Notes under the pieces: model-generated | The model's database searches: none | What the model saw: the letters and a program-made list of their open reading frames with translations, nothing else | Told to the model about the DNA's origin: nothing | Assembly (NCBI GenBank): GCA_031428115.1 | Contig: JANPOS010000070.1 | Coordinates: 97,418-161,417, forward strand | Reading direction: 5' to 3' | DNA: 64,000 nucleotides | DNA from: Novosphingobium sp. | Lineage (GTDB): Bacteria; Pseudomonadota; Alphaproteobacteria; Sphingomonadales; Sphingomonadaceae | Part shown: positions 7,620-52,504 of the stretch, in pieces | Position numbering within the stretch: the first letter of the stretch is position 1 | Layout: each line of letters starts with the position of its first letter | Translations under genes and position numbers: made by a program

Positions 7620-7699
7620 TCGGCGCAAATCCGTTGACTCGGCCGGCAACGCGGCGTTGAATATGCCCAGGCTTCACACGAAAGCCCGGGAGACGAGCA

Positions 7700-9007: not shown

Positions 9008-9017
9008 GCGGGCTGGA

Positions 9018-9075
9018 CTAGGGTGCTGACTGTGATTGCATCAAAGTCAGCACCCTAGATTGTTGTTTTGTCTTG
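9018..9075 (+). terminator. rho-independent terminator after the 7700-9007 gene
   Basis: CTAGGGTGCTGACT (9018-9031) and AGTCAGCACCCTAG (9045-9058) form a perfect 14-bp stem with a 13-nt loop, followed by ATTGTTGTTTTGTCTTGATTT. Confidence 0.8.
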
Positions 9076-9175
9076 ATTTCCGAGTCGCCAGATGATTCCA
9101 TCTGGCTCGAAATCACTCTAGCCGGATGACCGGGGACACGGTAAGCTGGGTCTCCGTTCTTCTGGAGCCATTGCC

Positions 9176-9655: not shown

Positions 9656-11823
9656 TGGGGTTCAAACGCAGGGCCTTCCTGATCGGCGGGGCGGCGATTG
9701 TCGGCGGCGGCATTTTCGCGCTGCAATACGGCGACTATGCGATGCGCCGCGATGCCGCCGCGCTGAGCCGGCGCGGCAATGCCGGCAGCTTCGGCGCCTG
9801 GCTGCATATCGGCGAGGATGACAGGGTTACCCTGCTCACGCCGCATATCGACATGGGCACCGGCACTCCCACGGCGCTCGCGCAGATGGCGGCGGAAGAA
9901 CTGGACGCCGACTGGGCGAAGATGGCAGTCGAAGCCGCCCCGGCCGAAAGTGCGTTCGGCAATGCCTGGCTGGCAAAGGGCTTCATTTCAGATGTTGCCA
10001 ACGATTCGGCGCTGGTCCGCTCGCTGCCCGCCTCGGTCTGGTCGCTGCTTGCGCGCAGTGTGGTGAACCAGATCACCGGGGGTTCCTCGGCGCTGCGCTT
10101 CACCGGGCAGCGCGGTATTCGCGTGCTGGCGGCGGCTACGCGTCTGGCGCTGATCGAGGAAGCGGCGGCGCGCCTCAATGTTCCCGCCAGCGAACTGACC
10201 ACCAAGGCGGGCCTCGTCAGCCACGCAGGTTCAAACCGCGCGCTGCGCTATGGCGAACTGGCGAAGGCGGCGGCGGAGCGCACGCTGTCCGCAGAGCCCA
10301 AGCTGAAGGCGGCCAAGGACTTCGCGCTGATCGGCACTTCGCCGGCCCGCTTCGATGTGCCGGGCAAAGTCGATGGCACTGCGCAATTCGGCATAGACTT
10401 TGTCCTGCCGGGAATGCGGGTGGCGACCGTGATGGCCGCGCCGGTTCGCGGCGGCAAGCTGGTGAAAGTCGATGCCGCGCCAGCCATGGCGATCAAGGGT
10501 GTCGAAAAGGTGGTGCAGCTTGAGGATGCCGTGGCAGTCATCGCCAGCGGCTACTGGTCTGCGCTGAAGGGCCTGCGCGCGCTTGACCCGCAGTTTTCGG
10601 ACGATGGCCATGGCGCGGTGGCAACGGCGGCGATGTTTGCCGAGCAGGAGCGGCTCTGTACCGAGGAACTGAAGGACTTCGCGCCGCCCGCCGGCAGCAG
10701 ACTGGTCGAAGCGGCCTACCGCGCGCCGTACCTGCACCACGCGATGATGGAGCCATTCGCGCTGACCGCGCATTACAAGGACGGCAAGCTCGATCTGTGG
10801 GGCGGCTTGCAGGACCCGCTGGGCAGCAAGCACGAGGCAGTCAAGCTCTCGGGGCTGGGTGACGACGCGGTGGCTTTCCATCCGATGCTGCTGGGCGGCG
10901 GGTTTGGCCGCAAACTGCCGGGACAGATCGAGATCATCGGCCAGGCGGTGAAACTGGCGATGGATTCCCCTCACCCGGTCAAGGTGATCTGGCCGCGCGA
11001 GGAAGAGGTCCGCCAAGGCACCTATCGCCCGCAAAGCGCCGTGCGCTTCAAATGCGCACTCGGAGCCGATGGCAAGATCGCGGCCTGGCGCAGTGCCTTT
11101 TCGCAAACCAAGGGCTTCGAGGCCGGAGCGCCGCTGCTCTATGATCTGCCGGAAGCCGAGAACACCCACGCCGAGCACAAAGCCCATGTGATCATCGGCT
11201 CATGGCGCTCGGTCGAAGCCTCGCAGCATGGCTTTTTCAACGAATGCATGATCGACGAACTGGCCCAGGCCGCCGGCGCGGACCCGATCGCCTTCCGCAA
11301 GGCCCATCTGGCGAAGAATTCGCGCGCGCATGCCGTGCTCGATGCGGTGGCCAGGGCATCGGGCTGGGGCGCGCCGCTGCCGGAGGGCACCGGGCGCGGG
11401 GTCGCGGTGGTCGAAAGCTTCGGCACGGTCTGCGCGCAGGTTGTCCAGGTGAGCCTGCGCGAGGATGGCTATCCCCGCGTCGAGAAAGTCTGGGCGGCGG
11501 TCGATTGCGGGCAAGTGGTCAATCCGCGAGGTGCCGAGGCGCAAGTCATGGGCGGCATCGTCATGGGGCTTTCGGCGGCGATCCATGAGGAGATCACCAT
11601 CGACAAAGGCGCCGTGGTGCAATCGAGCTTCAATGACTATCCACTGCTGACGCTGGCCGAGACACCGCAAATCGCGGTCGAATTCGTCGCCAGCACTGCG
11701 CCGATGGGTGGGCTCGGCGAGCCGGGCTTGCCCCCCGCCGCGCCGGCGCTGGCCAATGCCTTGTTCGCCGCCACGGCCAGGCGTGTACGCACCTTGCCGA
11801 TCCGGGCGCAGGCCGGGGCCTGA
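9655..11823 (+). CDS. molybdopterin-binding large subunit (isoquinoline 1-oxidoreductase beta / xanthine dehydrogenase family), Tat signal
   Basis: The in-frame ATG at 9655 gives [23 protein letters not shown] (twin-arginine signal). It is about 720 aa with the XDH-family C-terminus MGGLGEPGLPPAAPALANA. Confidence 0.88.
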   Translation: MGFKRRAFLIGGAAIVGGGIFALQYGDYAMRRDAAALSRRGNAGSFGAWLHIGEDDRVTLLTPHIDMGTGTPTALAQMAAEELDADWAKMAVEAAPAESAFGNAWLAKGFISDVANDSALVRSLPASVWSLLARSVVNQITGGSSALRFTGQRGIRVLAAATRLALIEEAAARLNVPASELTTKAGLVSHAGSNRALRYGELAKAAAERTLSAEPKLKAAKDFALIGTSPARFDVPGKVDGTAQFGIDFVLPGMRVATVMAAPVRGGKLVKVDAAPAMAIKGVEKVVQLEDAVAVIASGYWSALKGLRALDPQFSDDGHGAVATAAMFAEQERLCTEELKDFAPPAGSRLVEAAYRAPYLHHAMMEPFALTAHYKDGKLDLWGGLQDPLGSKHEAVKLSGLGDDAVAFHPMLLGGGFGRKLPGQIEIIGQAVKLAMDSPHPVKVIWPREEEVRQGTYRPQSAVRFKCALGADGKIAAWRSAFSQTKGFEAGAPLLYDLPEAENTHAEHKAHVIIGSWRSVEASQHGFFNECMIDELAQAAGADPIAFRKAHLAKNSRAHAVLDAVARASGWGAPLPEGTGRGVAVVESFGTVCAQVVQVSLREDGYPRVEKVWAAVDCGQVVNPRGAEAQVMGGIVMGLSAAIHEEITIDKGAVVQSSFNDYPLLTLAETPQIAVEFVASTAPMGGLGEPGLPPAAPALANALFAATARRVRTLPIRAQAGA

Positions 11824-34541: not shown

Positions 34542-34610
34542 GCGCCAACCGGCAGTGACACGAAGCGGCGCCGGACCTGTTCCGGCGCCGTTTTCATTTG
34601 GAGAGCACAC

Positions 34611-35351
34611 ATGGACGCACTGATCATTGCCGCCGGATATGGCAGCCGGCTGCGGGAGATTTCCGATGCCAAGCCGCTGACCCCGGTTGCCGGAGTGCCG
34701 CTGCTCGAACTGGGCGTACGCCAGGCAGTTGCCGCGGGAATCAGCCGGGTTGTCGTCGTCACCGGGCACCAGGCTATCGAGATCGAGAAGTTCCTGCCCA
34801 GCCTGTCAGCGCGGGTCGGCATTCCGGTGGTTTCGGAGCGGGTGCTCCACTGGTCAACGCCCAACGGCCATTCGGTGATTGCCGGCGCGGCGAAGATTTC
34901 AGGCGATTACCTGCTGATGATGGCCGATCACATTTTCGAGGGCTCAATCCTGACGCAGCTGGTCCGCGAAGGCACCAAGAGCCGCGGTGTGACGCTGGCC
35001 ATCGACCGGCGGACTGACAGCGCGCTGATCGATCCCGCAGATGCAACCTGGGTCAGAACCGACCGCGACGGCAGGATCGATGCGATCGGCAAGAGCATCG
35101 CCGACTATGACGCCGTCGATTGCGGCGCATTCCTCGCCACGCCGGAACTCGCAAGCGCCATTCATGCCGCGATCGCCGAGGGCAAGGCCGGTAGCCTCTC
35201 CGAAGGCATGCAACGCCTCGCCGATGCGGGCCGCGCCGCGACTATGGATATAGGCAATGCCTGGTGGCTCGATGTCGACGATCCGCGCGCCCATGCGCTG
35301 GCCGAGGCCGAAGCGCCGAAATACCTGCCAGAGATTTTCGCCCCAGCCTGA
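34611..35351 (+). CDS. NTP-transferase (nucleotidyltransferase) domain protein, candidate inositol-phosphate cytidylyltransferase
   Basis: The N-terminal MDALIIAAGYGSRL is the GxGxR nucleotidyltransferase signature. The protein is 246 aa, with GGAGAG 5 nt before the ATG. It lies 70 nt after the MIPS gene. Confidence 0.8.
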   Translation: MDALIIAAGYGSRLREISDAKPLTPVAGVPLLELGVRQAVAAGISRVVVVTGHQAIEIEKFLPSLSARVGIPVVSERVLHWSTPNGHSVIAGAAKISGDYLLMMADHIFEGSILTQLVREGTKSRGVTLAIDRRTDSALIDPADATWVRTDRDGRIDAIGKSIADYDAVDCGAFLATPELASAIHAAIAEGKAGSLSEGMQRLADAGRAATMDIGNAWWLDVDDPRAHALAEAEAPKYLPEIFAPA

Positions 35352-35371
35352 AGCGCCCGAAGACCGTCTGC

Positions 35372-36616
35372 TCAGTCCCAGCGGATCGGCAGCGAATCCA
35401 TGGCGATGATGTTGCCCGCATGGTAGGTCGCATGTTTGTCCGGATCGAGCCGGAACTCCGGCAAGCGTTTCAATATCTGCTGATACAGCACCTGCAATTC
35501 GACCCGCGCCAGATGCGCGCCGAGGCAGCGGTGGACGCCCGCGCCGAACGCCAGGTGGACCTTGTTCTCGCGCTCCAGGTCGAAATTCTCAGGGCTCGCA
35601 AATTCGCGCGGATCGAGATTGGCACCGGGGTAATAGAGGATAAGCCACTCGTTCTCCTTCATGCTCCAGCCGCCAAAGTCGCAATCCTTGTTGATGCGGC
35701 GCTGCGGCACCGCGAAGCTGTAGCGGCGCAGCATTTCCTCTGCCGCCTCGGTGATGAGCTCGGGATTGACGCGCAGCTTCGCCTGCAGATCGGGATGCAT
35801 CGCCAGATGGCGAACGGCAAAGCCCATGCCGTTGATCACGGTGTCGAGCCCAGCGATGAACAGCAGGACGCAATAATCTTCCATCAGTTCGACCGACATG
35901 GTCTCGCCCTCGATCTCGGTCTGCCACAGCAGGCTGATGATATCGTCCTTGGGATCGTCCTTGCGCGCCAGGATAACGGGCAGCATGGCATCGGCCACCT
36001 TGCGGAACAGCGTGCCTGAAGCCATCGGATCGGCGCCGGTATTGGCGAGAAATTCCTGCACCAGCACGCGGAATTCCGGCAACCGGTCAACCGGCAGTCC
36101 CATCAGGCCCAGGAAGATCGTCACAGGCAGCGGCACGGCAATATCGGGGATGAAATCGCAGTGGCCCTTGTCGATCACCGCATCGATCAGCTTGTCGGTC
36201 AGCGCGCGGATATCATCAATCTGCTGCATCGCGGCGCGCGGGCTGAAGGTCTTCTGCAGGGGGCCGCGAAATCTTGGATGGTCGGGCGGGTCCATCGAAA
36301 TCGGCGTCGCCTGCGGAATGCGCGGCATGCCCGGCGGCATCATCGCCATCATCGCCTTCATCTTTTCGGGCGGCATGAATGTGCTGGTGAAGCGCTCGGG
36401 ATCGCGCGCGGCTTCGTAGATTTCGGAATAGCCCATGCAGATCCAGCGTCCGCCATTGCGCGGCGTCCAGAACACCGGTGGCGCATCGCGCAGGATCTCG
36501 CGCAGCCGCTCATGCGGATCGGCGAGCAGGCCAGGGTCGGAGCGAAAATCGAAGTCGTAGACTGCCTCAGGCGGGATATGCGCAGGAATGGGGCTGGCTT
36601 CACTTAGGGCGTTCAC
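35372..36616 (-). CDS. cytochrome P450
   Basis: It has the heme-ligand motif FGAGVHRCLGAHLA, an ExxR motif (EMLR) and an I-helix AGLDTV. I moved the start to the GTG at 36616, preceded by GAGAGGAA, which gives about 415 aa. Confidence 0.88.
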   Translation of the reverse strand: MNALSEASPIPAHIPPEAVYDFDFRSDPGLLADPHERLREILRDAPPVFWTPRNGGRWICMGYSEIYEAARDPERFTSTFMPPEKMKAMMAMMPPGMPRIPQATPISMDPPDHPRFRGPLQKTFSPRAAMQQIDDIRALTDKLIDAVIDKGHCDFIPDIAVPLPVTIFLGLMGLPVDRLPEFRVLVQEFLANTGADPMASGTLFRKVADAMLPVILARKDDPKDDIISLLWQTEIEGETMSVELMEDYCVLLFIAGLDTVINGMGFAVRHLAMHPDLQAKLRVNPELITEAAEEMLRRYSFAVPQRRINKDCDFGGWSMKENEWLILYYPGANLDPREFASPENFDLERENKVHLAFGAGVHRCLGAHLARVELQVLYQQILKRLPEFRLDPDKHATYHAGNIIAMDSLPIRWD

Positions 36617-42080: not shown

Positions 42081-42238
42081 AAACAGCCCCTCCCGTCAGG
42101 CCAATTATCGTCTTGCCGATTTCATCGACCAAAATCCGCTGGTGCGAAAGCGAAAAATGCACCGCCGGGCAGCCGCGATTTTCACCACCGAATCAGTCAT
42201 GCTTAACGCTTTTTCAAGCGCATCTGGTCCATGGACCA

Positions 42239-44980
42239 ATGATGACTGCCGCAAGGGACAATCAGATCGGGCTCGCCCCGCCAGGCGCGCCGCCCAATGT
42301 GCCGGCAAGTGCGCCGGAAACTGCGCCGCTCCCGCGGCGCGAACCGGAAGGCGCCCCAGCCGCAGGCAGGCTGCGCGGTGGCGCGGGGCGCGGCCAGGCA
42401 GGAAGTGCTTCGGTCACCCCGATTGGCCGGCACTCTGCCCATTTCCTGGTCGCCGGGGAATGGGCGTTCATGGCACCGGTGATGGCGCTGAGCCTGCTGA
42501 TTGCCAGCCTGCTCCAGCTGGCTTTCCCGCCGATCGTGGTGATCGGGCTGACTATCACGGCGATTGCCCTGGCCGGCGCCACCAAGATCTTCATCAATTT
42601 CGAGCGCACGCCCGGTCGCAGCACATCCATGCGCTATCTTGCCGCGATCATCGCCATTGCCCTGCCGATGCAACTGTTCGGCTTCGGCATGGCGCTCTGG
42701 GCCGGCCAGGGCGGTCTCGATTGGCCGATCGTGATCGCCGTCATCGCGATCAACGGCGCGGTAGTCTCGATCTCGCTGACCAGCCGCCTGCCGGCCATGG
42801 TGGCCGGACAGATCGCGCTGTGGACCGGCCTGTGCCTGGTATCGCCGTCGCTGAGCACGGTGCTGGGTCTATTGACGGGCTGCGGGCTCGGCGTGCTTGC
42901 AGCCTTGCTGCAAGGCCACCGCGACCGCGCGATTGATGCCCAGCAGCGCGAGCTTGAGCGCGTGCAGGTCCGCGCCGAACGCCTGCTCGCCGAATACGAA
43001 CAGACCGGGCTCGGCTGGTTCTGGGAAACCGACCGGCGCGGTACGATTTCCTATCTATCCTCGCCGATCTGCCGCCTGCTGGGCCGCAAGGCAGACGAAC
43101 TGATCGGCAAGCCGTTTACCGATCTCTTCATCCTTGACGAGAGCAACCGCGAGGGCGAGCGGACGCTGAACTTCCACCTTTCCGCACGTTCATCGTTCCA
43201 CGAGCTTGCCGTAAGAGCCGCGACGCCGGACGAGGAGGAGCGCTGGTGGTCGGTTTCGGGCCGGCCGATGCACGACAGCTTCAACAATTTCGTCGGATTT
43301 CGCGGCTCGGGCACCGATCTTACCGAAAAGCGCCGCAGCCAGGAGGACGCCTCGCGCCTGGCGCACTTTGATTCGCTGACCAGCCTGGCCAACCGCTTCC
43401 AGATGTCGCAGACGCTGGAGAAGCTCCTCAATGCCCAGCGCATCGACCAGCGGGACTGCGCGGTATTCCTGCTCGATCTCGACCGCTTCAAGCAGATCAA
43501 CGATACCATGGGCCATCCTGCCGGCGACGCGCTGCTCACCCAGGTCGCCCAACGGCTCGAGCGCACGGTTGACAGCGCGGGCCGCGTCGGCCGGCTGGGC
43601 GGTGACGAATTCCAGGTCATCATCCCCGGCGCGCTGCGCCGCGAAGACCTCGCCCAACTGGCGCAGCGCATCATCGAGAACCTATCGCATCCCTATTCGA
43701 TTGAAGGGCATAGCGCGGTCATCGGCGTTTCGATCGGCATTGCTATCTCGCCCGATGACGGGGTGACCAGCGAGGCGCTGATCCGCAATGCCGATCTTGC
43801 GCTCTATGCGGCCAAAGACGGCGGGCGCGGCCGCCATCACTTCTATGCCTCCGACCTGCACAGCGACGCCGAAGCGCGCCGCCAGCTCGAACACGACCTG
43901 CGCGACGCGCTCGCCAGCGGCGGGCTGGAGCTGCACTATCAGCCGGTCGTGCAGACCACGACCGAGAAGATTACCGGCTTCGAGGCCCTGCTGCGCTGGA
44001 ACCACCCACGGCTTGGCGCGCTTTCGCCGACAAAATTCATCCCGCTCGCCGAAGAAACCGGGCTGATCGCCCAGATTGGCGAATGGGCACTGCGCACCGC
44101 CTGCCAGGATCTGGCGCGCTGGCCCGAAACGGTGCGCGTGGCGGTGAACGTCTCGCCGCTGCAATTCGCCAATCCTGCGCTGCCCGCGATCGTCACCAGC
44201 GCACTTGCGGCTGCCCAGATCAACCCCGAGCGGCTTGAGCTGGAGATCACCGAAAGCGTGTTCCTGAACGACGATGCGGGCACTGACGCGATGTTCGCCG
44301 CGCTTAAACGCATCGGCGTGCGGCTTTCGCTTGATGACTTCGGCACCGGCTATTCCTCGCTCGGCTATCTCAAGAAGGCACCTTTCGACAAGATCAAGAT
44401 TGACCAGAGCTTTGTCCGCGGCGCCACGATGCCGGGCAGCCGCAACGGCGCGATCATCGCCGCGATTGTCAGTCTTGCCGAAGCACTGGGCATGGAAACC
44501 ACGGCCGAAGGCGTTGAAACACTCGACGAACTCGATCTGGTCCGCATGTTGGGGTGCAGCCACATCCAGGGCTTCATCTATGACCGGCCGCTCACCGCAG
44601 AATCCGCTTCAAAGAGGCTGGAAACCGGGTTGATCGCCATCGCCAAGGGCCCGCGTGCGGCGCGATCACGCCGCCACACCATGCTGCGCAAGGTGGTGCT
44701 CGATCATCAGGGCGAGCGTTATCAGGGTACGATCCGCAACATCTCGTCCAGCGGCGCGATGATTGAGGGGCTGTGGAATGTGCCACCCGGCACCCACTTC
44801 GAGCTTCAAGTGTCCGAAAGCCGCACGATCGGCGCGCTGGTCCGTTGGGCGCAGCAGGATCGTATCGGAGTGCAGTTCGCCGAAGCGCTCGATCTCGATG
44901 AAGCGGGCCGCTTCCTGCCCGCCCCTCTGCGGCCGTTGCGCAAGCCCGGCGAAGGCGTGCTGCTGCGCAAGGCGGGATGA
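42239..44980 (+). CDS. membrane-anchored PAS-GGDEF-EAL-PilZ c-di-GMP protein
   Basis: It has N-terminal TM helices and a PAS-like segment (GLGWFWETDRRGTISYLS). The GGDEF (RLGGDEFQV) and EAL (FEALLRW, ELEITE, DDFGTGYSSL, KIDQSF, EGVE) motifs are intact. A C-terminal PilZ domain follows (RRHTMLRK...RNISSSGAMIEG). The start is uncertain; the track ORF opens at 42113. Confidence 0.85.
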   Translation: MMTAARDNQIGLAPPGAPPNVPASAPETAPLPRREPEGAPAAGRLRGGAGRGQAGSASVTPIGRHSAHFLVAGEWAFMAPVMALSLLIASLLQLAFPPIVVIGLTITAIALAGATKIFINFERTPGRSTSMRYLAAIIAIALPMQLFGFGMALWAGQGGLDWPIVIAVIAINGAVVSISLTSRLPAMVAGQIALWTGLCLVSPSLSTVLGLLTGCGLGVLAALLQGHRDRAIDAQQRELERVQVRAERLLAEYEQTGLGWFWETDRRGTISYLSSPICRLLGRKADELIGKPFTDLFILDESNREGERTLNFHLSARSSFHELAVRAATPDEEERWWSVSGRPMHDSFNNFVGFRGSGTDLTEKRRSQEDASRLAHFDSLTSLANRFQMSQTLEKLLNAQRIDQRDCAVFLLDLDRFKQINDTMGHPAGDALLTQVAQRLERTVDSAGRVGRLGGDEFQVIIPGALRREDLAQLAQRIIENLSHPYSIEGHSAVIGVSIGIAISPDDGVTSEALIRNADLALYAAKDGGRGRHHFYASDLHSDAEARRQLEHDLRDALASGGLELHYQPVVQTTTEKITGFEALLRWNHPRLGALSPTKFIPLAEETGLIAQIGEWALRTACQDLARWPETVRVAVNVSPLQFANPALPAIVTSALAAAQINPERLELEITESVFLNDDAGTDAMFAALKRIGVRLSLDDFGTGYSSLGYLKKAPFDKIKIDQSFVRGATMPGSRNGAIIAAIVSLAEALGMETTAEGVETLDELDLVRMLGCSHIQGFIYDRPLTAESASKRLETGLIAIAKGPRAARSRRHTMLRKVVLDHQGERYQGTIRNISSSGAMIEGLWNVPPGTHFELQVSESRTIGALVRWAQQDRIGVQFAEALDLDEAGRFLPAPLRPLRKPGEGVLLRKAG

Positions 44981-45077
44981 CCACGCGCAGGTGCGCCTGG
45001 CGGAATTAGCCATTTCTAAACCACGAAGTTCTACACTGCGGTTCGTCAACTTGTTGGCAATTTATCGGAGTGGTTTC

Positions 45078-47312
45078 TTGGCCGGACAGGGCGCAAACGG
45101 TGTAGGCAGGCTGCGCAGCCTGCTGGGAGGTCGGCCCTCGGGCGCGCCCCGGCCGGCGCCGCTGCTCGCCAGCAAGGACGAGTTGCAGCAGGCGCGCATG
45201 CTGCTTCACGATTACGAATGTTCGGGGCAGGGCTGGTTCTGGTCAAGCGATGCCCAGGGCCAGATTGCCTATCTTTCGCCAGGCGTTGCCCAGCAACTTG
45301 GCCTTGAGGCAAGCGAACTGCAGGGCCGCCCCTTCCATTCGCTGTTCATCCTCGAACGCGACGAGGACGACAGTGTCGAGCGGACGCTGCCGTTGATCTT
45401 CAGCGCCAGCAAGACCTTTTCCGGCCTCACTATCCGCGCCGCCAGGGAAGATCGCGAGATCTGGTGGTCGATTTCCGGTCGGCCCCAGTTCAGCCCGGCA
45501 GGCGACTTTTGCGGCTATCTCGGCAATGGCGTGGACATCACCGCGAGCCGCCAGCTGCAAAAGGACGCCTCGCGCCTCGCGCTGTTCGATTCGCTCACCG
45601 GGCTGTCAAACCGCCATGCAATGGACAAGCGCCTGGCTTCGGTGCTGTCTGCCTATCGCGCCGCCAAGCGCAGCTGTGCGCTGTTCATGCTCGATCTCGA
45701 CCGGTTCAAGGCAGTAAACGACACACTGGGCCATCCAGCGGGCGATGCTCTGCTCAAGCAGGTCGCCGAGCGGCTGCGGCAGGTGGTCGACAAGAGCGGC
45801 GAGATCGGCCGGCTGGGCGGCGACGAATTCCAGATTCTGCTGCCCGACATCGACGATCGCGGCCGCCTGGGCGAGTTGAGCAGCAAGATCATCGATATGC
45901 TCTCGCAGCCCTATTCACTGGGGGAAAACCGCTGCGTGATCGGCGCATCAGTCGGCATCGCCATCGCACCCTATGACGGGGTCGAGCCGGGCGAGCTGGT
46001 CCGCAATGCCGACCTTGCGCTCTATGCCGCCAAGGATGGCGGTCGCGGCCAGTTCCGCTTCTATTCCAGTGACCTGCAGATCGAGGCGGCGCGCAATCGG
46101 CAGATCGCGGCCGACCTTCGCGAGGCGCTGGTGCGCGATGAAATAAGCCTCGAATACCAGCCGCTGGTCGAGGCGGCATCGAACAAGGTTGTTGCGCTCA
46201 AGGCCTTCCTGCGCTGGGACCATCCCGACCTTGGCGAAGTAGCGCCCGCGGTTTTCCTGCCGATCGCCGAAGAAACCAAGATGATCGGTCCGCTGGGCGA
46301 CTGGGCGATCAGGCAGGCCTGCGACGATGCAGTGCAGTTGCCGGGGAACATCAAGGTCGCCGTCAGCGTTTCGGCGGCACAGCTTGCCACGGGCGAGCTG
46401 CCGGTGGTGGTGACCCAGGCCTTGGCCAATTCGGAACTGGCGTCTGATCGGCTGGAACTCGAATTTGCCGAATCCATTCTCGCCAGCGAGGCCCAGCTGG
46501 CTGACGCCATGTTCGATTCGCTCAAGATCCTTGGCGTGCGGCTGGTGCTCGACCGCTTCGGCACCGGCTTTTCCTCGCTCGCCAATCTGCGCACCGGGCC
46601 ATTCGACAAGCTCAAGTTCGGCGCCGCCTTCATTCGCGGCGCGACCGAACCCGGCAGCCGCAACGGCGCGATAATCAAGGCCATCGTTGAGCTGGCGCAA
46701 TCGCTGGGGCTCGATGTGGCAGCTGACGGCATCGAGGCGAGCGATGAACTGGCGCTGATGCGCAAGCTGAAAGTGGGCCAGATTCAGGGTGACATCTTTG
46801 CCGCCGCGGTCAGCTATGCCGAAGTCGTCGAAGCGCTTGCCAGCGGCGAATGGGTGATCGAACCCGATGGCCCAAGCCGCTATCGCTATGAGCGCAGGAC
46901 CGTCTACCGCAAGGTCGGGGTGATCCATGAGGACTACCGTTACGAGGTGACGATGCGCAACCTCTCGCGCACCGGCTGCCTGGTCGATGGCCTCGTCGAT
47001 GTCCCGCTGGACACTCCCTTTGTCGTCGATTTCGGCGCTGGACAGCTTGCCGTGGCCAAAGTCAAACGCTCGGCAGGCTCAATGCAGGGGCTCGAGTTCG
47101 AGCTGCCAATGGTCGATGACGGGGCTGGCGGCCTGGTGACGCGGAACCGCATCTCGCCCTATGCGCTCGCGGCGGCCGGGATGCCGCTCGGCGCATTGCC
47201 CCCGGGCAGCTATCCGCTGGACCTGGCAACCAGCGGCGGCGCGGCCAAGCTGGGCACACCCAAATTTGCCGAAGCGCATGACGGGGCGAAAAAAGCGATG
47301 CGGCTGGGTTGA
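45078..47312 (+). CDS. cytoplasmic PAS-GGDEF-(degenerate EAL)-PilZ protein, paralog of the preceding gene
   Basis: It has a PAS-like segment (GQGWFWSSDAQGQIAYLS) and an intact GGDEF (RLGGDEFQI). EAL positions are substituted (KAF for EAL, LDRFGTG for DDFGTG, KFG for KID). A PilZ domain follows (RRTVYRK...RNLSRTGCLVDG). I propose the TTG at 45078, 7 nt after GGAG. The first ATG is at 45198, inside a helix that aligns to the paralog. Confidence 0.8.
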   Translation: MAGQGANGVGRLRSLLGGRPSGAPRPAPLLASKDELQQARMLLHDYECSGQGWFWSSDAQGQIAYLSPGVAQQLGLEASELQGRPFHSLFILERDEDDSVERTLPLIFSASKTFSGLTIRAAREDREIWWSISGRPQFSPAGDFCGYLGNGVDITASRQLQKDASRLALFDSLTGLSNRHAMDKRLASVLSAYRAAKRSCALFMLDLDRFKAVNDTLGHPAGDALLKQVAERLRQVVDKSGEIGRLGGDEFQILLPDIDDRGRLGELSSKIIDMLSQPYSLGENRCVIGASVGIAIAPYDGVEPGELVRNADLALYAAKDGGRGQFRFYSSDLQIEAARNRQIAADLREALVRDEISLEYQPLVEAASNKVVALKAFLRWDHPDLGEVAPAVFLPIAEETKMIGPLGDWAIRQACDDAVQLPGNIKVAVSVSAAQLATGELPVVVTQALANSELASDRLELEFAESILASEAQLADAMFDSLKILGVRLVLDRFGTGFSSLANLRTGPFDKLKFGAAFIRGATEPGSRNGAIIKAIVELAQSLGLDVAADGIEASDELALMRKLKVGQIQGDIFAAAVSYAEVVEALASGEWVIEPDGPSRYRYERRTVYRKVGVIHEDYRYEVTMRNLSRTGCLVDGLVDVPLDTPFVVDFGAGQLAVAKVKRSAGSMQGLEFELPMVDDGAGGLVTRNRISPYALAAAGMPLGALPPGSYPLDLATSGGAAKLGTPKFAEAHDGAKKAMRLG

Positions 47313-47355: not shown

Positions 47356-49173
47356 ATGACTGAACTCGCGCAAATCCGTAATTTTTCCATCATCGCTCAC
47401 ATCGACCACGGCAAGTCGACGCTCGCTGACCGGCTGATTCAGCACACCGGCGGGCTCACCGAGCGCGAGATGTCCGCGCAAGTGCTTGATAACATGGACA
47501 TCGAGAAAGAGCGCGGGATCACCATCAAGGCGCAGACCGTCCGCCTGCGCTACACCGCGAACGACGGAATCGAATACGAGCTCAACCTGATGGACACGCC
47601 GGGCCACGTCGATTTCGCCTACGAGGTCAGCCGCAGCCTCGCGGCTTGCGAAGGCGCGCTCTTGGTCGTCGATGCCGCGCAAGGCGTCGAGGCGCAGACG
47701 CTGGCGAACGTTTACCAGTCGATCGAACACGACCACGAGATCGTGCCGGTGATCAACAAGATCGACCTGCCCGCCGCCGAACCCGAAAAAGTCCGCGCCG
47801 AAATCGAGGAAGTCATCGGCCTCGACGCCAGCCAGGCGGTGCTCACCAGCGCCAAGTCCGGCATCGGCATCGCCGAAGTGCTCGAAGCCATCGTCACGCG
47901 CATCCCGCCCCCCAAGGGCGACCGCAATGCCCCGCTGAAAGCCATGCTGGTCGACTCATGGTACGACCCCTACCTCGGCGTCGTCATCCTCGTCCGCGTC
48001 ATCGACGGGGTGATCAAGAAGGGCCTGCGCGTCAAATTCATGGCCGGCGGCACCGAGCACCTGATCGACCGCACCGGCTGCATGCGCCCCAAGATCGAAC
48101 AGCTCGAGGAACTCGGCCCCGGCGAGATCGGCTTCATCACCGCGCAGATCAAGGAAGTGGCCCAGGCGCGCGTCGGCGACACCATAACCACGGTGCAGAA
48201 CGGTGCCACCAAGGCGCTGGCGGGCTTCAAGCAAGTCCAGCCGGTGGTGTTCTGCGGCCTGTTCCCGGTCGACGCGGCGGACTTCGAGAAGCTGCGCGAG
48301 TCCATCGCCCGCCTGCGCCTCAACGATGCCAGCTTCAGCTTCGAAATGGAATCAAGCGCCGCATTGGGCTTCGGCTTCCGCTGCGGTTTCCTCGGCCTGC
48401 TGCATCTGGAAATCATCCAGGAGCGCCTGACCCGCGAATACGACCTCGACCTGATCACCACCGCGCCCTCCGTCGTCTATCGCATCCAGCTGCGCAAAAG
48501 CAAAACCGACGACGCCCGCGAAATCTACCTCCACAACCCGTCGGACTACCCCGACCCCAGCCGCATCGAACAGATCGACGAGCCGTGGATCAAGGCGACG
48601 ATCTACACGCCCGACGAATACCTCGGCTCGATCCTCAAGCTCTGCCAGGATCGCCGCGGGGTGCAGACCGGGCTGACTTACGTCGGCGGCCGCGCCCAGG
48701 TCAGCTACGAGCTGCCGCTCAACGAAGTCGTGTTCGATTTCTACGACCGGCTCAAAAGCATCAGCCGCGGCTATGCCTCCTTCGATTACGAACAGATCGG
48801 CCTGCGCGAAGGCGACCTCGTCAAGATGTCGATCCTGGTCAACGCCGAACCGGTCGACGCGCTCTCGATGATCGTCCACCGCGGCGTCGCCGAAGATCGC
48901 GGCCGCCACATGTGCGAACGCCTCAAAGACCTGATCCCGCGCCACTTGTTCAAGATCCCGGTGCAGGCCGCGATCGGCGGCAAAGTCATCGCGCGGGAAA
49001 CCATCGCCGCGATGCGCAAGGACGTGACGGCCAAATGCTATGGCGGCGACATCAGCCGCAAGAAGAAGCTGCTCGACAAGCAGAAGAAGGGCAAGGCAAG
49101 GATGCGGGAGTATGGGAATGTCTCGATCCCCCAGGAAGCCTTCATTGCCGCGCTGCGCATGGGCGAGGAATAG
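47356..49173 (+). CDS. lepA: elongation factor 4
   Basis: It has [28 protein letters not shown] and NKIDL GTPase motifs and the LepA C-terminal domain. Confidence 0.97.
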
Positions 49174-49298
49174 ATCGGGGGAGGGGGGCCAGCGAAGGTG
49201 GTGGAGGGGCACCCGCGCCCAATCCCAACCTTGCTTCAAGCCGCCACCCCAGCGAAAATTTATTTCGCGCAAAGCCGCAAAGAGCGCAAAGAAGCCCC

Positions 49299-49829
49299 AT
49301 GCAGGATGCCGCGCCCAAAAAGATTATCATCGTTGCCGGACCCAATGGCGCGGGCAAGACAACCTTTGCCCGCTCGTTCCTCCCGATGGAAGCAGGTGTG
49401 CCCCGCTTCATAAACGCCGATGCCATTGCCGCAGGCCTTGCCGCGTTCGCCCCCGAAACCGCCGCGATCCGCGCCGGACGGCTGATGCTGGAGGAGATCC
49501 ACCTGTGCGTCCGGCGTGGGGATAGCTTCGCTTTTGAAACCACCCTGTCCGGTCTGACCTACTTGCGCCACATCGCCGCATGGCGCGCGCTGGGTTACCG
49601 GGTCAGCCTGATCTTCCTGAGCTTGCCAACCGCCGAGACGGCTATCGAGCGAGTCGGCTCGCGGGTGCGGCAAGGCGGACACCATGTTCCTGAGTCGGTA
49701 ATCCGCCGCCGCTTTGACGCCGGTCTCAAAAACTTCCGGCAGCATTACATAGGTGCTGTGGACGACTGGATCCTGTATGATAACTCCGCAGGGGAACCTG
49801 TAGCGCTCGAATGGGGAGAAACGCCATGA
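49299..49829 (+). CDS. zeta-toxin-like P-loop kinase (COG4185-type AAA/zeta family)
   Basis: It has Walker A IIVAGPNGAGKTT near the N-terminus and is about 176 aa with FETTLSG and a GGHHVPE region typical of zeta/PezT-like kinases. It is the in-frame tail of the spurious 727-aa track ORF 47646-49829. Confidence 0.75.
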   Translation: MQDAAPKKIIIVAGPNGAGKTTFARSFLPMEAGVPRFINADAIAAGLAAFAPETAAIRAGRLMLEEIHLCVRRGDSFAFETTLSGLTYLRHIAAWRALGYRVSLIFLSLPTAETAIERVGSRVRQGGHHVPESVIRRRFDAGLKNFRQHYIGAVDDWILYDNSAGEPVALEWGETP

Positions 49830-50008
49830 GCCAAACCGACCTGTCGCTTGCGAAAAACCCGGATTTGCGTGCCTCGCTCGCCGGCATGCGCCGCGCCGCA
49901 GCGCTCGCCCGCCAGACTGCAATCCAAACCGATACAGAGATCGTCATGGTGCGGGGCGGCAAACCGGTGCGGATTTCGGCAGCGGAATTGCGCGCAAGCA
50001 AGGATTGA
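49826..50008 (+). CDS. 60-aa protein translationally coupled to the zeta-like gene (possible cognate partner)
   Basis: It has an ATGA overlap with the zeta-like stop, native GC-rich codon usage and no recognised domain. Confidence 0.5.
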   Translation: MSQTDLSLAKNPDLRASLAGMRRAAALARQTAIQTDTEIVMVRGGKPVRISAAELRASKD

Positions 50009-50062
50009 TCTGAATGTGATCTTCCTTGCTTTTGCGTGACACAAATGGGGGCTATTGCACCT

Positions 50063-50129
50063 GTCACCGTAACCGGTAACTACCGGAATTCCTCTGTACT
50101 GGGAATTCCCCCGGTATCACCGTAAATTC
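50063..50129. repeat. left composite inverted-repeat end of the three-gene cassette
   Basis: It contains GTCACCGTAA (50063-50072), CCGGAATTCC (50083-50092), GGAATTCCCCC (50102-50112) and TCACCGTAA (50117-50125). The same motif set occurs in inverted orientation at 51966-52020. Confidence 0.7.
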
Positions 50130-50575
50130 AAATCCATAACCGCAACATGCTCCGTAAATACTTCCAGAGTAAGCGCATCAAGCAGCGCGCGGTCTTCATC
50201 AGTGAAGCGTCGAAGTTCGACATGGCCTGTGTTTGGACCTTCGGGCGTATGAACCAAGCGCACCTGCTTGCCATAGTTTACCGATATTTCGCGACTTTTT
50301 CCTGCATTACCAATGGCGAAATAGGCTTTCGCTCCTAGTTTTTTCGACTGTCGGGTATCTCGAAATTTTGAAGCGGCGATAGAATAAGTCGCCAATTCTT
50401 TCGCCCCGTAATGTTCGACCCAAGTCAGTGAGAGCCCCCCTTTGTCGCTGGGACGCAACGTAAATGCAGCGCCCGTGATGCCTTTGAAGCGGCCATCATC
50501 AGGATCGCGCACCTGTTGGCCATACGGAACGAAGCGCATCAAATGGTCGGAATCGGGAATCCGATCCTTAGCCAT
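50117..50575 (-). CDS. hypothetical protein (third gene of cassette)
   Basis: The ATG at 50575 overlaps the upstream stop as ATGGCTAA. The 152-aa protein starts MAKDRIPDSDHLMRFVPYGQQV. I recognise no family. The track ORF opens at 50608. Confidence 0.65.
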   Translation of the reverse strand: MAKDRIPDSDHLMRFVPYGQQVRDPDDGRFKGITGAAFTLRPSDKGGLSLTWVEHYGAKELATYSIAASKFRDTRQSKKLGAKAYFAIGNAGKSREISVNYGKQVRLVHTPEGPNTGHVELRRFTDEDRALLDALTLEVFTEHVAVMDLNLR

Positions 50576-51158
50576 TGCCGAACCAAGCGTCGGGTTGATA
50601 AGGAGCAAGGCGGGGCATAATCAATTCGAGCGTTGCCATCCCAGCAGTCGGGTATCCATCTGCGCAACTGACAACCCATTGGAGTCGGTCGTTCGCTTTG
50701 AACTCAATCGTCAGGCGGCTGCCATTGGCCTCCCATACGGCCAGAAGATGCCCGTCCGGGTTCAGCGCTAGCGACGGTTTTGAATGGCGACCTTCGGCGA
50801 TCATGAACCGTATGAAGCTCTTGTATGATTCCAATAGGACCGGTCGATCATCGCCGAACCATTCATCGCAATCATGCAAGAGGTCAAGCTGTCGGAAATA
50901 GCGGTTGCGCGCCGCCAAATCGAGCCGCATCGCCACCTTGGAAGTCCAGATCTTCGCATCGGCCAGCGCAACAAAAACCCGCTCAGCAAGCGATGCTGGT
51001 GCCATTGTTTCGCTGACAGGAGCAACTGCATGCGGCTCCACCAACCCATGCTTAATAATATCGGCCATCCCCAACCCCAACGCACTGGAGCTTGAAATTG
51101 ACGATTTCAATTGCCGCAAATTTACGTTGCTGGCGAGATAATTTCCCATTTCTGTCAT
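50568..51158 (-). CDS. hypothetical protein (second gene of cassette)
   Basis: It is 196 aa and has an ATGA overlap with the upstream stop. I recognise no family. Confidence 0.65.
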   Translation of the reverse strand: MTEMGNYLASNVNLRQLKSSISSSSALGLGMADIIKHGLVEPHAVAPVSETMAPASLAERVFVALADAKIWTSKVAMRLDLAARNRYFRQLDLLHDCDEWFGDDRPVLLESYKSFIRFMIAEGRHSKPSLALNPDGHLLAVWEANGSRLTIEFKANDRLQWVVSCADGYPTAGMATLELIMPRLAPYQPDAWFGNG

Positions 51159-51898
51159 CGTGAAAAACTGGCTCTCGCTTTGTCAGTGATAGATGTTTCA
51201 AAAATCTCATTTTTCAAGTTGCGCATCTTTTCTAGCACACCTTCAATTTCATCTACCTTAACCGGAAGATTGCGTTCCGCAATCACGTCTATGTCCAACA
51301 AAAATGCAGCGTGCTTAGGTATCACTGGCGCGGTCGTTGCAGATTGCACTATTGCCAGCAAACCCAGGTCAGCAAAATCCCGTTCAAATCTCCACCCATA
51401 GCTATTCACCGTATCGCACATTGGCGGCAGAGTAAGGTTGATCGTCAGGTAGTGCTCATACCACGTAACCTCCCCTTCATTTGCGGGAATGTCGATCCGG
51501 TTGATGTATCGAACACCAATTCGAGCCAATTTTCTGAATCCAGTCACCTCTTGCGCGATCCGCACATCCCGCATGCAGCGCTCAACAAAGGGTTGCCATC
51601 CGTCATATGGGGCAAGGTGGGACCAAGTTTGAAATGCATCTGCCACAATGAGAACATCTGTCTCGTCTGGCGAGGAAAGTCTTGCTTGGACCTCGGCCGT
51701 AAATGCGGCCTTCTCCTGTGCGAAATCGAGACTAGCGCCTTTGGTGATCTGGGGAAGCTCATTCGCATATTCGCGTTTCAGCCGTTTAAGCAGCTTTTTG
51801 TAGAGTGATTTGGGTAGAGGCTCTGCATATCGAAGCTGAATGACCGCTTCGATGATCGGTGGCGCATCGTATGGCGGTCCGAATGAGGTTTCAGTCAT
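51155..51898 (-). CDS. TIGR04255-like family protein (function unknown)
   Basis: PPIIEAVIQLRY near the N-terminus, ARIGVRYINRI mid-protein and the about 250 aa length match my recollection of TIGR04255. I prefer the ATG at 51898 over the GTG at 51916. Confidence 0.7.
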   Translation of the reverse strand: MTETSFGPPYDAPPIIEAVIQLRYAEPLPKSLYKKLLKRLKREYANELPQITKGASLDFAQEKAAFTAEVQARLSSPDETDVLIVADAFQTWSHLAPYDGWQPFVERCMRDVRIAQEVTGFRKLARIGVRYINRIDIPANEGEVTWYEHYLTINLTLPPMCDTVNSYGWRFERDFADLGLLAIVQSATTAPVIPKHAAFLLDIDVIAERNLPVKVDEIEGVLEKMRNLKNEIFETSITDKARASFSR

Positions 51899-51965
51899 GT
51901 CGTCGATCCTATCCACTGCTTTCCCGATCTTATCAACATAGCGTGTCCAATAATTCGCTGACTTC

Positions 51966-52020
51966 GAATTACGGGAAAAGGGGGAATTCCGGAGATTACT
52001 GTGACGAGATTACGGTGACG
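51966..52020. repeat. right composite inverted-repeat end of the cassette, includes a tandem 14-mer
   Basis: Read on the minus strand it contains GTCACCGTAA (52019-52010), GTCACAGTAA (52005-51996), CCGGAATTCCCCC (51992-51980) and CCCGTAA (51975-51969). On the plus strand, AGATTACTGTGACG is followed directly by AGATTACGGTGACG. Confidence 0.7.
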
Positions 52021-52192
52021 GCGCACTTGTTTTTCAACTCCCCCTAATCCGCCCCGCCTCCCGCTTGCCCTGATCAGCCGCGAACGCTGAATGACGCGGA
52101 AATCACTCGTCTGCACAAAAATTCCCCACTCCGGCAGCAATTCGTGCCATTAGGCCCCCAATCCACCCAACCAGACGAGAACGACACCAAAG

Positions 52193-52504
52193 ATGGCATC
52201 CTACAAAGACCCCAGTTTCCAGGAGCGCACAGCGCTCGCCAAGCAGGCCCGCGAAAAGGCGCTGGCGCTGCTCGCCACCAAGGCTGCGCCTGATGCCGAG
52301 CTGATGGCCCAGCGCAAGGCCGCCCGCGAAGCAAAGGAAGCCGCCGCGCGCGAGAAGAGCGCTGCGCGCAAGGCCGCGATTGCCGAAGCCAAGGCCGACA
52401 AGCTGGCCGCCAGCCAAGTGCCCGAAAAGCCCAAGCCGACTGAAGCCGAGCTCAAAGCCGCGCGCGATGCGCGCTATGCGGCGCGGAAGAAGAACAAGCG
52501 GTGA
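52193..52504 (+). CDS. Lys/Ala/Glu-rich small protein (resembles DUF6481 family)
   Basis: The 103-aa protein MASYKDPSFQERTALAKQAREKAL... is helical, charged and low-complexity, as in small conserved alphaproteobacterial proteins. G+C returns to the native level. Confidence 0.65.
   Translation: MASYKDPSFQERTALAKQAREKALALLATKAAPDAELMAQRKAAREAKEAAAREKSAARKAAIAEAKADKLAASQVPEKPKPTEAELKAARDARYAARKKNKR

Follow-up and report, generated by a model that had tools for sequence, protein, structure and literature searches.

In the window (the whole 64-kb stretch of DNA that was analysed), three genes, referred to here as g1, g2 and g3, form one translationally coupled operon, which is inserted beside a zeta-toxin-like gene pair right after lepA; in close relatives this site is empty or otherwise filled. 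As a unit of ~1.9 kb, and with its gene order kept, the trio moves between chromosomal sites that are unrelated to one another, the edges of prophages and patches rich in mobile elements, in bacteria of several classes, and it is very probably an accessory mobile conflict module. The fuller reading, in which three proteins acquired by horizontal transfer make up a self-contained module with a probable role in conflict and with abortive-infection or toxin-type anti-phage defence as the likeliest function, is one that we hold with about even confidence, while a function in anti-phage defence specifically has, in our judgement, slightly less than an even chance of being correct. One large clade of the TIGR04255 family is now tied to a strictly ordered, translationally coupled three-gene cassette, so that what was an anonymous annotation is now a defined system of 1.9 kb that can be cloned and for which candidate catalytic residues are named.

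The operon and its insertion after lepA

The three minus-strand ORFs and both of their overlaps were recovered as described in an earlier note on this DNA (Table 1). The g1/g2 junction reads cacgATGAcag, with the g2 start placed over the g1 stop (ATGA, a 4-nt overlap), and the g2/g3 junction reads ggcaATGGCTAAgg, with the g3 start over the g2 stop (ATGGCTAA, an 8-nt overlap). An alternative GTG start of g1 at 51916 would extend its product by 6 aa. Comparison of g1, g2 and g3 with one another revealed no homology among them. The neighbours named in the same note, i.e. lepA, the zeta-toxin-like pair and a small Lys/Ala-rich gene, are all present, and the last of these is a member of DUF6481.

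Table 1. Features of the lepA-DUF6481 region (positions in the window).
Feature	Position	Strand	Description
lepA	47356-49173		
Whole insertion	49174-52118		relative to the empty lepA-DUF6481 site; holds the zeta-toxin-like gene, the 65-aa ORF and the trio
Zeta_toxin/AAA_33-like gene	49299-49829	+	Pfam, 37 bits (cut-off 22.3)
65-aa ORF	49811-50008	+	overlaps the zeta-toxin-like gene
Structured 3' region after g3	49985-50116	-	three hairpins; inverted repeat I10
g3	50117-50575	-	152 aa from ATG; ORF list
g2	50568-51158	-	196 aa; ORF list
g1, first gene of the operon	51155-51898	-	247 aa from ATG at 51898; ORF list
Operon 5' non-coding region	51899-52118	-	about 220 nt
DUF6481 (Lys/Ala-rich gene)	52193-52504		Pfam

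The insertion was mapped by tblastn over loci L115-L128 and with the intergenic sequences of L115 and L118 against the window. In the latter two loci (lepA 94% identical) the spacing between lepA and DUF6481 is 92 and 66 bp, respectively, and because the gap in these close relatives is so short, we conclude that ~2.95 kb including the trio were inserted here; the match to the empty site picks up again at about position 52118. The corresponding gap measures ~300 bp in L119, L121 and L122, and in L117 the same spot is filled by different cargo. The block is thus absent from this locus in the related genomes, and its composition is foreign: the trio has 51.3% GC vs 64.7% in the whole window, which is the lowest value of all 1.8-kb segments in the 64 kb (5th percentile 60.6%), and the GC3 of its genes is 0.49-0.59 vs 0.79-0.87 for lepA, DUF6481 and the next gene. 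Four GC counts made by hand in the earlier note (45, 62, 35 and 52%) were reproduced on recomputation (45.0, 61.7, 35.0 and 51.7%). Its proposal that the block was horizontally acquired is borne out by the windowed GC and GC3 values, as well as by the other loci, 80 of 83 of which carry a trio that is AT-richer than its flanks (median difference in GC -0.10).

The promoter scan of the operon 5' region revealed no sigma-70 consensus promoter. TRF identified in this region a 14-nt tandem repeat, GAGATTACGGTGAC (2.1 copies, 51992-52020), a possible operator or border motif; Rfam and tandem-repeat searches for an RNA component yielded nothing besides this repeat. On the other side of the trio, the RNA fold of positions 49985-50125, which include the g3 stop codon, has an energy of -55.3 kcal/mol (z = -6.2; none of the 200 shuffles is as stable), and this hairpin region is probably a terminator cluster between the convergent g3 and 65-aa ORF.

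The inverted repeats that were reported to bracket the block are upheld only in part. The 10-mer TTACGGTGAC is enriched (5 matches vs 0.84 expected; none of 100 shuffles reaches 5), and four of the five copies are found at the ends of the trio, with those at one end inverted relative to those at the other; a copy of the TTACGGTGAC core occupies 50063-50072 in the 3' region of g3. However, the best flank-to-flank inverted pair around the trio has a z-score of only 2.3 vs shuffles, and the block contains neither a transposase nor an integrase, which distinguishes it from a transposon or a MITE-like element. The enriched border 10-mer is specific to this lineage. Terminal inverted repeats were rejected as a general signature of mobility: a z-score above 4 was reached in just 3 of 102 loci, strong flanking repeats being found in L047 (z = 91) and L033 (z = 20), and inspection by eye of L001, L002 and L005 revealed no conserved cassette borders.

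Distribution and genomic neighborhood

The trio co-occurs well outside the close relatives of the window. In 93 non-redundant loci, selected for matches to all three profiles, g1, g2 and g3 are encoded colinearly on a single strand, with g2 after g1 in 93 of 93; 55 loci share the 4-nt overlap of g1 and g2, and the majority of the g2/g3 junctions overlap too. The hosts comprise Alpha-, Beta-, Gamma- and Zetaproteobacteria, Acidithiobacillus, Bdellovibrionales and two CPR bins, to which 14-15 viral contigs are added. Among the 114 loci with a g1 match, g2 was found in 104 and g3 in 102, and where g2 or g3 is lacking, the locus is mostly on a truncated contig or is one of the more distant TIGR04255 loci, L110-L114. 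The partner genes from Sinorhizobium are homologous to those of the window (33% and 29% identity, E-values 5e-29 and 1e-20). When a collection of 185,579 species genomes was scanned in a pattern-limited way, ~200 candidate stretches were obtained that tblastn confirmed. This synteny, together with the empty or otherwise filled site in relatives and the foreign composition, supports the earlier view of the block as a self-contained accessory module.

Analysis of the genomic neighborhood revealed that the trio is mostly found alone among unrelated housekeeping genes, and now and then at a prophage edge or next to toxin-antitoxin (TA) or restriction-modification (RM) genes. It adjoins prophage tail and lysis genes in L001, primase and P22-like genes in L009-11, and Amidase_2 and a group II intron RT in L012-14, while a resolvase and IS66 are located nearby in L143. 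TA-type neighbours include Gp49/HTH_37 pairs, Xre_MbcA_ParS_C, NTP_transf_8 and VapBC. The 150 nearest neighbours, counted without a background set, include matches to type I and type III RM systems, MADS and PD-T4-6; since most of the immediate neighbours are ordinary housekeeping genes, the enrichment of defence islands is modest. It is these prophage-edge and TA/RM neighbours, together with a weak but specific link to the defence candidate PDC-M32 (see below), that suggest a function in defence, TA or another kind of conflict.

The prevalence of metabolic and housekeeping neighbours would agree with a function outside of conflict, e.g. that of a small stress-response or nucleotide/cofactor-modifying enzyme set prone to horizontal transfer, and so would the enzyme-like conservation of g1 and g3 and the absence of any known defence domain from the trio in the PADLOC scan. 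We nonetheless regard such a function as very unlikely, for no conserved metabolic neighbour was found among the neighbours surveyed, the distribution is sporadic (the ~200 stretches mentioned above and 476 clusters of g3), the trio is persistently more AT-rich than its host, sister genomes lack the trio at the same locus, and the trio is associated with TA genes, prophages and IS elements.

Another explanation is that the trio is a "moron" of prophages or other mobile elements that serves the element itself, for instance by excluding superinfection in some other way, by acting against defence systems or by controlling the lysis-lysogeny decision; the copies in chromosomes would then be what is left of prophage ends. 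The adjacency to tail and lysis or primase and P22-like genes points in this direction, as do the IMG/VR contigs, 14-15 of 18 of which carry the trio (mostly less than 6 kb from the contig end), and a P2-like Ralstonia phage record that has a distant version of the trio at its end. However, many copies, including those in the window, L002, L005, L141 and L142, are cleanly inserted as 1.9 kb between housekeeping genes, and no phage gene lies within 6 kb of them; among 50,697 records of GenBank phages a g1 relative was found in only one, which runs into host T6SS/PAAR genes. The copies near the ends of IMG/VR contigs and in the "UNVERIFIED_ORG" Ralstonia record may be host DNA beside a prophage and not phage cargo. 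We consider the moron explanation quite unlikely. The PLSDB plasmids contain two distant TIGR04255 genes only, and a literature search for "3HP"/P2 hotspots found nothing.

The three protein families

g1 is a member of NCBIfam TIGR04255, as correctly proposed in the earlier note: the match is full-length and well above the cut-off (131.3 bits, cut-off 30; E-value 5.2e-38; residues 10-245 aligned to positions 2-251 of the 252-position model). NCBIfam describes TIGR04255 as a "sporadically distributed" subfamily model, and the distribution of g1 is sporadic too. The annotation is silent on partners, whereas the clade of g1 (identity of at least 29%) is firmly tied to two particular genes downstream; more distant TIGR04255 genes have other partners, namely an AAA ATPase together with a 122-aa protein, or else a protein of 175 aa or of 147 aa. 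Conserved polar residues of g1 comprise E17, R130, N133, R134, D136, D202, D204, K229, N230 and E234 (numbered from the ATG). We found no match of g1 in Pfam, PADLOC or among PDB sequences and no internal duplication, and the literature search on TIGR04255 retrieved no paper from the searchable corpus.

g2 represents an unnamed family with 58 clusters of homologues. The AF2 model (pLDDT 67 overall, about 90 in the C-terminal domain) predicts a disordered, Ser-rich N-terminus (residues 1-51), followed by helices (57-121) and by a five-strand β-meander with a helix (129-193). Foldseek comparison of the model with the PDB reported nothing at E-value ≤0.001. For neither g2 nor g3 was any match found in Pfam, NCBIfam, PHROGs, the PADLOC models or PDB sequences; the scans reported neither a housekeeping nor a curated family for these two proteins, which the earlier note had not recognized either. 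The scans of the three proteins of the window (Pfam, NCBIfam, PADLOC, PHROGs) yielded TIGR04255 for g1 plus a weak match to phrog_5464, a family of unknown function, and no Pfam family recurs in 150 diverse trio members. Matches to eL13 and SUMO that appeared in searches of PDB sequences with all three families (single sequences, narrow and broad profiles) were rejected as spurious.

g3 represents an unnamed family of free-standing ~150-aa proteins (77 clusters), for which the exhaustive g3 search yielded 476 representatives at 50% identity (E-value ≤1e-3). An apparent fusion, P0275 (1954 aa, 26 matched stretches), turned out to be a repetitive surface protein, i.e. a false positive. In an alignment of 146 sequences the near-universal residues are R14, A37-F38, R41, E/D44, S49, W52, E54, R106, P111, N115 and H118; R14 (141/146) lies within the predicted strand 11-16 and S49 (146/146) within strand 48-52. 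The conservation of Arg14, Ser49 and His118, together with Arg41, Glu54 and Arg106, suggests that the substrate may be a nucleotide, NAD or a nucleic acid. The AF2 model is of the α/β type (pLDDT 88, pTM 0.83); Foldseek identified no match at E-value ≤0.001 in the PDB, and the best match among viral structures (BFVD) has an E-value of only 0.08.

The predicted fold of g3 only faintly resembles that of ADP-ribosyltransferases (ARTs). The 50 best Foldseek matches in the PDB include the ART-fold entries Tpt1/KptA (E-value 0.15, rank 4), NarE (E-value 0.16, TMq 0.37) and three structures of DarT (E-value 0.46-0.78), and the positions of the Arg (first strand) and of the Ser (a later strand, with a helix after it) are compatible with the R-S-E clade, but this likeness is non-specific. 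Conservation in g3 does not extend to the catalytic [Q/E]-x-E motif (position 120 is Glu in 30/146 and Ala in 50/146 sequences); a conserved N115-x-x-H118 is present instead, and no Pfam ART or RES match was found. We have therefore rejected the assignment of g3 to the ARTs, for which the fold matches are non-significant (E-value 0.15-0.8, TM 0.27-0.37, rmsd 9-11 Å) and the catalytic motif is missing.

Proposed mechanism and relation to known systems

From the architecture of the operon we tentatively assign to g1 the role of input, to g2 that of adaptor and to g3 that of effector. In such a mechanism g1, with its dense conserved site of Arg, Asn, Asp, Lys and Glu, would be the constant input or enzymatic core, which in distant relatives is paired with other downstream genes, e.g. 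that of an AAA ATPase; the C-terminal domain of g2 and g3 would form an output pair, in which g3 may be a small enzyme-like effector that g2 holds or regulates until g1 senses a trigger. We also speculate, no more firmly, that the trio is an uncatalogued, widespread anti-phage system, that TIGR04255 is a general sensor or signal-making core with interchangeable outputs (g2 and g3 here, the AAA ATPase or small proteins elsewhere), and that the fold of the g3 effector and its Arg/Ser/His active site are absent from solved structures. If the anti-phage reading is true, it would provide the first role for the "function unknown" TIGR04255 family, and g3 would be a new effector family, possibly with a new fold.

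The trio resembles type II and tripartite TA systems (epsilon/zeta, HigBA-SecB TAC) in its compact overlapping operon, in its mobile, sporadic distribution and in its TA neighbours. It could accordingly be a selfish addiction cassette, one product of which is toxic and neutralised by the others, and which persists and spreads since its loss is costly, with no dedicated role against phages. In favour of this are the small size and tight overlap of the genes, the lack of an integrase, the scattered single-copy insertions amid housekeeping genes, the TA neighbours (zeta-like in the window; Gp49/HTH_37, a ParS-type antitoxin and VapBC elsewhere) and the disordered N-terminal region of g2, a feature shared with many labile antitoxins. 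Nonetheless, no toxin, antitoxin or chaperone family is recognizable in the trio, no DNA-binding domain of the HTH, RHH or AbrB type was seen in any component, the pI values of the products do not exhibit a clear split into an acidic antitoxin and a basic toxin, and the first and best-conserved gene encodes a 247-aa protein of enzyme-like character, unusual for a TA system. We regard the addiction cassette as rather unlikely, but it overlaps with the explanation by abortive-infection or toxin-type defence, because the boundary between TA and abortive infection is blurred.

As regards catalogued defence systems, none of the 5027 models of PADLOC-DB v2.0.0 matched g1, g2 or g3 of the window even at E-value ≤1, and the only models touched by relatives of the trio are PDC-M32A and PDC-M32B. 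At E-value ≤0.01, two of 150 type 1 proteins match M32A and one matches M32B. The g2 counterparts of two distant loci match PDC-M32A with E-values of 1e-4 and 1e-3, and an adjacent g3 counterpart matches PDC-M32B with an E-value of 6e-4. The similarity is marginal (E-value 1e-4 to 7e-3) and confined to diverged relatives, and both the link between types 1 and 2 and that to PDC-M32, as judged from sequence comparison, should be regarded as marginal. The architectures differ as well: PDC-M32 is a two-gene defence candidate (models of 375 positions for M32A and 123 for M32B), whereas the trio has three genes; the g2 family (196 aa in the window) covers, via its diverged copies, no more than the last ~90 positions of M32A, in its C-terminal part, and the first ~258 positions of M32A are not detectably TIGR04255-like, as none of 55 g1 sequences (from the window, four distant loci and 50 diverse ones) matches them. 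The presence of PDC-M32 on a Sinorhizobium prophage has been mentioned descriptively (PMC12429752). Nonetheless, the diverged g2 and the adjacent diverged g3 align, with matching gene order, to M32A (positions 259-346) and M32B (positions 71-119), and PDC-M32 seems to join a similar output pair to a different N-terminal part. This defence candidate is the only catalogued relative of the trio, albeit a weakly similar one, and if the role in defence is true, the constant TIGR04255 core with its variable outputs would follow a modular logic like that of CBASS or retrons.

A translationally coupled operon of foreign composition

The genes g1, g2 and g3 constitute one translationally coupled operon, foreign in composition. 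The three minus-strand overlapping ORFs described in the earlier note were found at its positions, with a 4-nt overlap at the g1/g2 junction (...cacgATGAcag...) and an 8-nt overlap at the g2/g3 junction (...ggcaATGGCTAAgg...), both read from the sequence. Its GC counts for four 60-nt lines were recomputed as 45.0, 61.7, 35.0 and 51.7%, and its claim of low GC content is borne out by the trio as a whole (51.3% vs 64.7% for the window), which is the lowest in GC among all 1.8-kb windows across the 64 kb. The GC3 of the trio genes is 0.49-0.59, whereas it reaches 0.87 in lepA, 0.79 in the DUF6481 gene and 0.81 in the next gene.

Coordinates of the features discussed, in the window and in the loci compared
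Sequence	Feature	Coordinates	Strand	Description
Window	signalling protein pair	42113-47312
Window	lepA	47356-49173		upstream of zeta-like gene
Window	Zeta_toxin/AAA_33-like gene	49299-49829	opposite to trio	176 aa; Pfam Zeta_toxin 37 bits, cut-off 22.3
Window	65-aa ORF	49811-50008		overlaps 3' part of zeta-like gene
Window	g3	50117-50575	minus	ORF, 152 aa
Window	g2	50568-51158	minus	ORF, 196 aa
Window	g1	51155-51898	minus	247 aa from ATG; alternative GTG start 18 nt upstream possible
Window	DUF6481 gene	52193-52504		beyond trio
Window	TTACGGTGAC copies around trio	50063-50072, 50116-50125, 51996-52005, 52010-52019
L121	22-nt tandem version of TTACGGTGAC	11677-11720
L047	trio	425-2284
L047	inverted repeats	74-342, 2402-2669
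YO139_2 (L113)	diverged trio, record end	34585-36262
L110	distant TIGR04255 gene and partners	7989-10723		classical AAA ATPase and 122-aa protein follow
L112	distant TIGR04255 gene and partner	6535-8571		175-aa protein follows; phage HNH and terminase genes adjoin
L114 (Thermus plasmid pTB1)	distant TIGR04255 gene and partner	5010-6312		147-aa protein follows; VapBC, methylase and cas6 adjoin

The gene order is lepA, the zeta-like gene, the 65-aa ORF (no family match), the trio on the other strand and the DUF6481 gene. The GC3 of the zeta-like gene (0.70) lies between that of native genes and that of the trio, hence this gene may have arrived separately, and the zeta-like pair is probably a separate, older toxin-antitoxin-like accessory insertion at the same site. 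Directly upstream of lepA are two adjacent paralogous large signalling proteins, GGDEF-EAL-like by eye only, and three related contigs (L115, L121, L122) keep this pair as well.

Insertion site and border repeats

The accessory gap claimed after lepA was examined in related genomes, with metagenomic relatives of the flanking DUF6481 gene as the empty-site reference. In two contigs whose lepA is 94% identical to that of the window the site is empty, with 92 bp (L115) and 66 bp (L118) from the lepA stop to the DUF6481 start; in three others (L119, L121, L122) this gap is about 300 bp. In the window the insertion starts no more than about 15 nt from the lepA stop and empty-site homology returns at about 52118, so that ~2.95 kb (49174-52118), comprising the zeta-like pair and the trio, are extra. 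Another contig (L117) carries a different 3.9-kb cargo between lepA and DUF6481 (RadC-JAB, MarR-like, LuxR-type regulators), and in L123 and L125 the 3' fragments of lepA are duplicated. Given the empty sites, the alternative cargo and the duplications, the short stretch between lepA and DUF6481 is a hotspot for insertions in this Sphingomonad lineage. The duplicated lepA fragments are reminiscent of att-site duplication.

The inverted repeats reported to bracket the block stood in part: a generic flanking inverted-repeat test did not rise above chance level in the window (z = 2.3) or in 99 of 102 loci, but inverted copies of one 10-mer, TTACGGTGAC, occur at both ends. This 10-mer is the core of a 14-nt tandem repeat upstream of g1 and is over-represented in the window, where 5 matches were observed vs 0.84 expected; four of these copies are located at the two ends of the trio. 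Since it does not accompany other trios, and a low-GC Rhs/YD-toxin island in the related contig L121 has a 22-nt tandem version at its border, TTACGGTGAC seems specific to this lineage, as an element at the borders of accessory cassettes and not a component of the system; it may be an operator, a REP-like element or a site of recombination. Rfam yielded no match within the inserted block. The 141 nt after g3 have a predicted fold of -55.3 kcal/mol (z = -6.2) and look like a terminator cluster between convergent genes. One exception to the inverted-repeat result is the locus L047 (Thioalkalispiraceae MAG), in which inverted repeats of ~270 nt (84-92% complementary) enclose the trio; this arrangement could be a cassette that inverts or moves, or an artefact of assembly.

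Three-gene synteny across distant hosts

The g2 and g3 families initially comprised 58 and 77 clusters, apparently confined to Sphingomonads, owing to a word-index limit. With the g1 profile, a search through GTDB (one genome per species) yielded 80 loci, distributed over Alpha-, Beta-, Gamma- and Zetaproteobacteria, Acidithiobacillus, Bdellovibrionales and two CPR bins (short contigs, for which binning errors are possible), and IMG/VR contributed 18 further loci. HMMs built from g2 and g3 were used to search around g1, and among 114 loci with a g1 match they detected g2 in 104 and g3 in 102, the remainder being mostly truncated contigs or distant TIGR04255 loci. In essentially every qualifying locus (g1 about 29% identical or more to that of the window, enough sequence present) g2 and then g3 lie directly downstream of g1, on one strand and in constant order. 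Co-occurrence outside close relatives, which the earlier note had proposed to check, is thus evident from colinear trios in several proteobacterial classes; in Sinorhizobium the partners are 33% (g2, E 5e-29) and 29% (g3, E 1e-20) identical. Among 93 non-redundant trios the g1/g2 overlap is 4 nt in 55, and the majority of the others have a short overlap of a different length; at the g2/g3 junction overlaps of 1-26 nt prevail. In 80 of 83 loci GC content is lower in the trio than in its flanks (median -10 GC points, window -13.6). An exhaustive HMMER search with g3 collected 476 representatives at 50% identity, almost all free-standing and about 150 aa long; the sole long match, P0275, was rejected as a repetitive false positive. 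The synteny is strict across distant hosts and many insertion sites. Among the rival readings, a non-conflict enzyme set is the one that distribution and composition fit least well.

The trio itself encodes neither an integrase nor a transposase. Copies were found after prophage tail and lysis genes (L001), within a primase, AAA_25 and P22-like region (L009-11), next to genes for Amidase_2 and a group II intron RT (Sinorhizobium, L012-14), in a patch with a resolvase and IS66 (L143) and, in four loci (L002, L005, L141, L142), as a clean insertion between housekeeping genes. In IMG/VR contigs the trio is mostly within 6 kb of a contig end, so it could be prophage-edge cargo or adjacent host DNA. 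Among GenBank phages a g1 relative is present in a single record, Ralstonia phage YO139_2 (ON170239.1, flagged UNVERIFIED_ORG), where the diverged trio leads directly into a PAAR/T6SS region, the PAAR-motif gene (Pfam E 4e-20) coming after the trio; this record probably includes host DNA past the prophage border. One more ORF past the PAAR gene is DUF4123-like by eye only. A prophage accessory function is a possible rival reading. Some trios adjoin Gp49/HTH_37 toxin-antitoxin pairs, a ParS-type antitoxin or NTP_transf_8; when the nearest neighbours were scanned (150 ORFs, 33 diverse loci), most proved to belong to unrelated housekeeping families and a few matched type I and type III restriction-modification, MADS and PD-T4-6 models. 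A further possible rival reading is a pure addiction (toxin-antitoxin-like) cassette. We infer that the trio is a conflict module, most likely for phage defence of the abortive-infection or toxin type; the hedged reading of the earlier note (phage-defence, toxin-antitoxin-like or other) holds.

Protein families and relation to PDC-M32

The TIGR04255 assignment of g1 in the earlier note was confirmed by a full-length match (131 bits vs a cut-off of 30). Neither g2 nor g3 matched Pfam, NCBIfam, PADLOC or PHROGs, and searches of PDB sequences, even with broad profiles, gave no relative for any of the three. The proteins are mutually unrelated, with no homology found among them and no internal duplication in g1. 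The polar set E17, R130, N133, R134, D136, D202, D204, K229, N230 and E234 of g1 is kept in all types, and Y10, P14, Y98 and W101 are also conserved. The AlphaFold2 model of g2 is confident in part: a disordered, Ser-rich stretch of 51 residues at the N-terminus precedes helices, and a C-terminal β-meander plus helix has pLDDT around 90. Conservation in g2 is mainly at structural residues. The g3 model is confident (pLDDT 88, pTM 0.83). At E<=0.001 Foldseek identified no match for g2 in PDB and none for g3 in PDB or BFVD. The weak tail for g3 contains the ADP-ribosyltransferase-fold proteins KptA, NarE and DarT (E 0.15-0.8, TM 0.27-0.37), a likeness of the predicted model that is a lead only. 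Among 146 g3 sequences R14 is retained in 141, S49 in all 146 and H118 in 141, together with A37-F38, R41, E/D44, W52, E54, R106, P111 and N115; however, E120 is not conserved, hence the canonical [Q/E]-x-E motif of ADP-ribosyltransferases is missing. In the proposed scheme g1 would be the constant component, as input or enzymatic core; the C-domain of g2 would pair with g3 as the output, with g3 as the putative enzyme-like effector.

Distant TIGR04255 genes (23-31% identical to g1) exhibit two downstream patterns. In the Ralstonia record and L111 two overlapping genes again follow, the first (about 165 aa) with the WDGxGS...FEW motif of g2 and the second (about 146 aa) with R-x-V-P...AF...S...N-x-A-H as in g3; profile-profile scores between these diverged trios and those like the window's are marginal (E 6e-4 and 3e-3), but the motifs coincide in the alignments as expected. 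Other proteins follow in L110, L112 and the Thermus plasmid (table). This suggests a common TIGR04255 core whose partners can be exchanged.

The trio is missing from the curated defence catalogues examined, two of its three proteins being without a family or fold match, and we found no mention of TIGR04255 in the literature. Judged by sequence comparison, its only link to anything catalogued appears to be the PADLOC phage-defence candidate PDC-M32, which is listed, without more, on an S. meliloti prophage (PMC12429752); no other paper mentioning PDC-M32 was found. The diverged g2 copies align with C-terminal positions 259-346 of 375 of PDC-M32A (E 1e-4 and 1e-3), and a diverged g3 copy adjacent to a diverged g2 matches PDC-M32B (E 6e-4). 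When 150 proteins from trios like the window's were compared with all 5027 PADLOC models, again only PDC-M32A (2 members) and PDC-M32B (1 member) were matched. In PDC-M32 a pair resembling the g2 C-domain and g3 seems joined to a different N-terminal part. The trio, well delimited and a good candidate for experimental testing, is best described as a three-gene, TIGR04255-led relative in kind to PDC-M32-type small mobile candidate defence/toxin cassettes.
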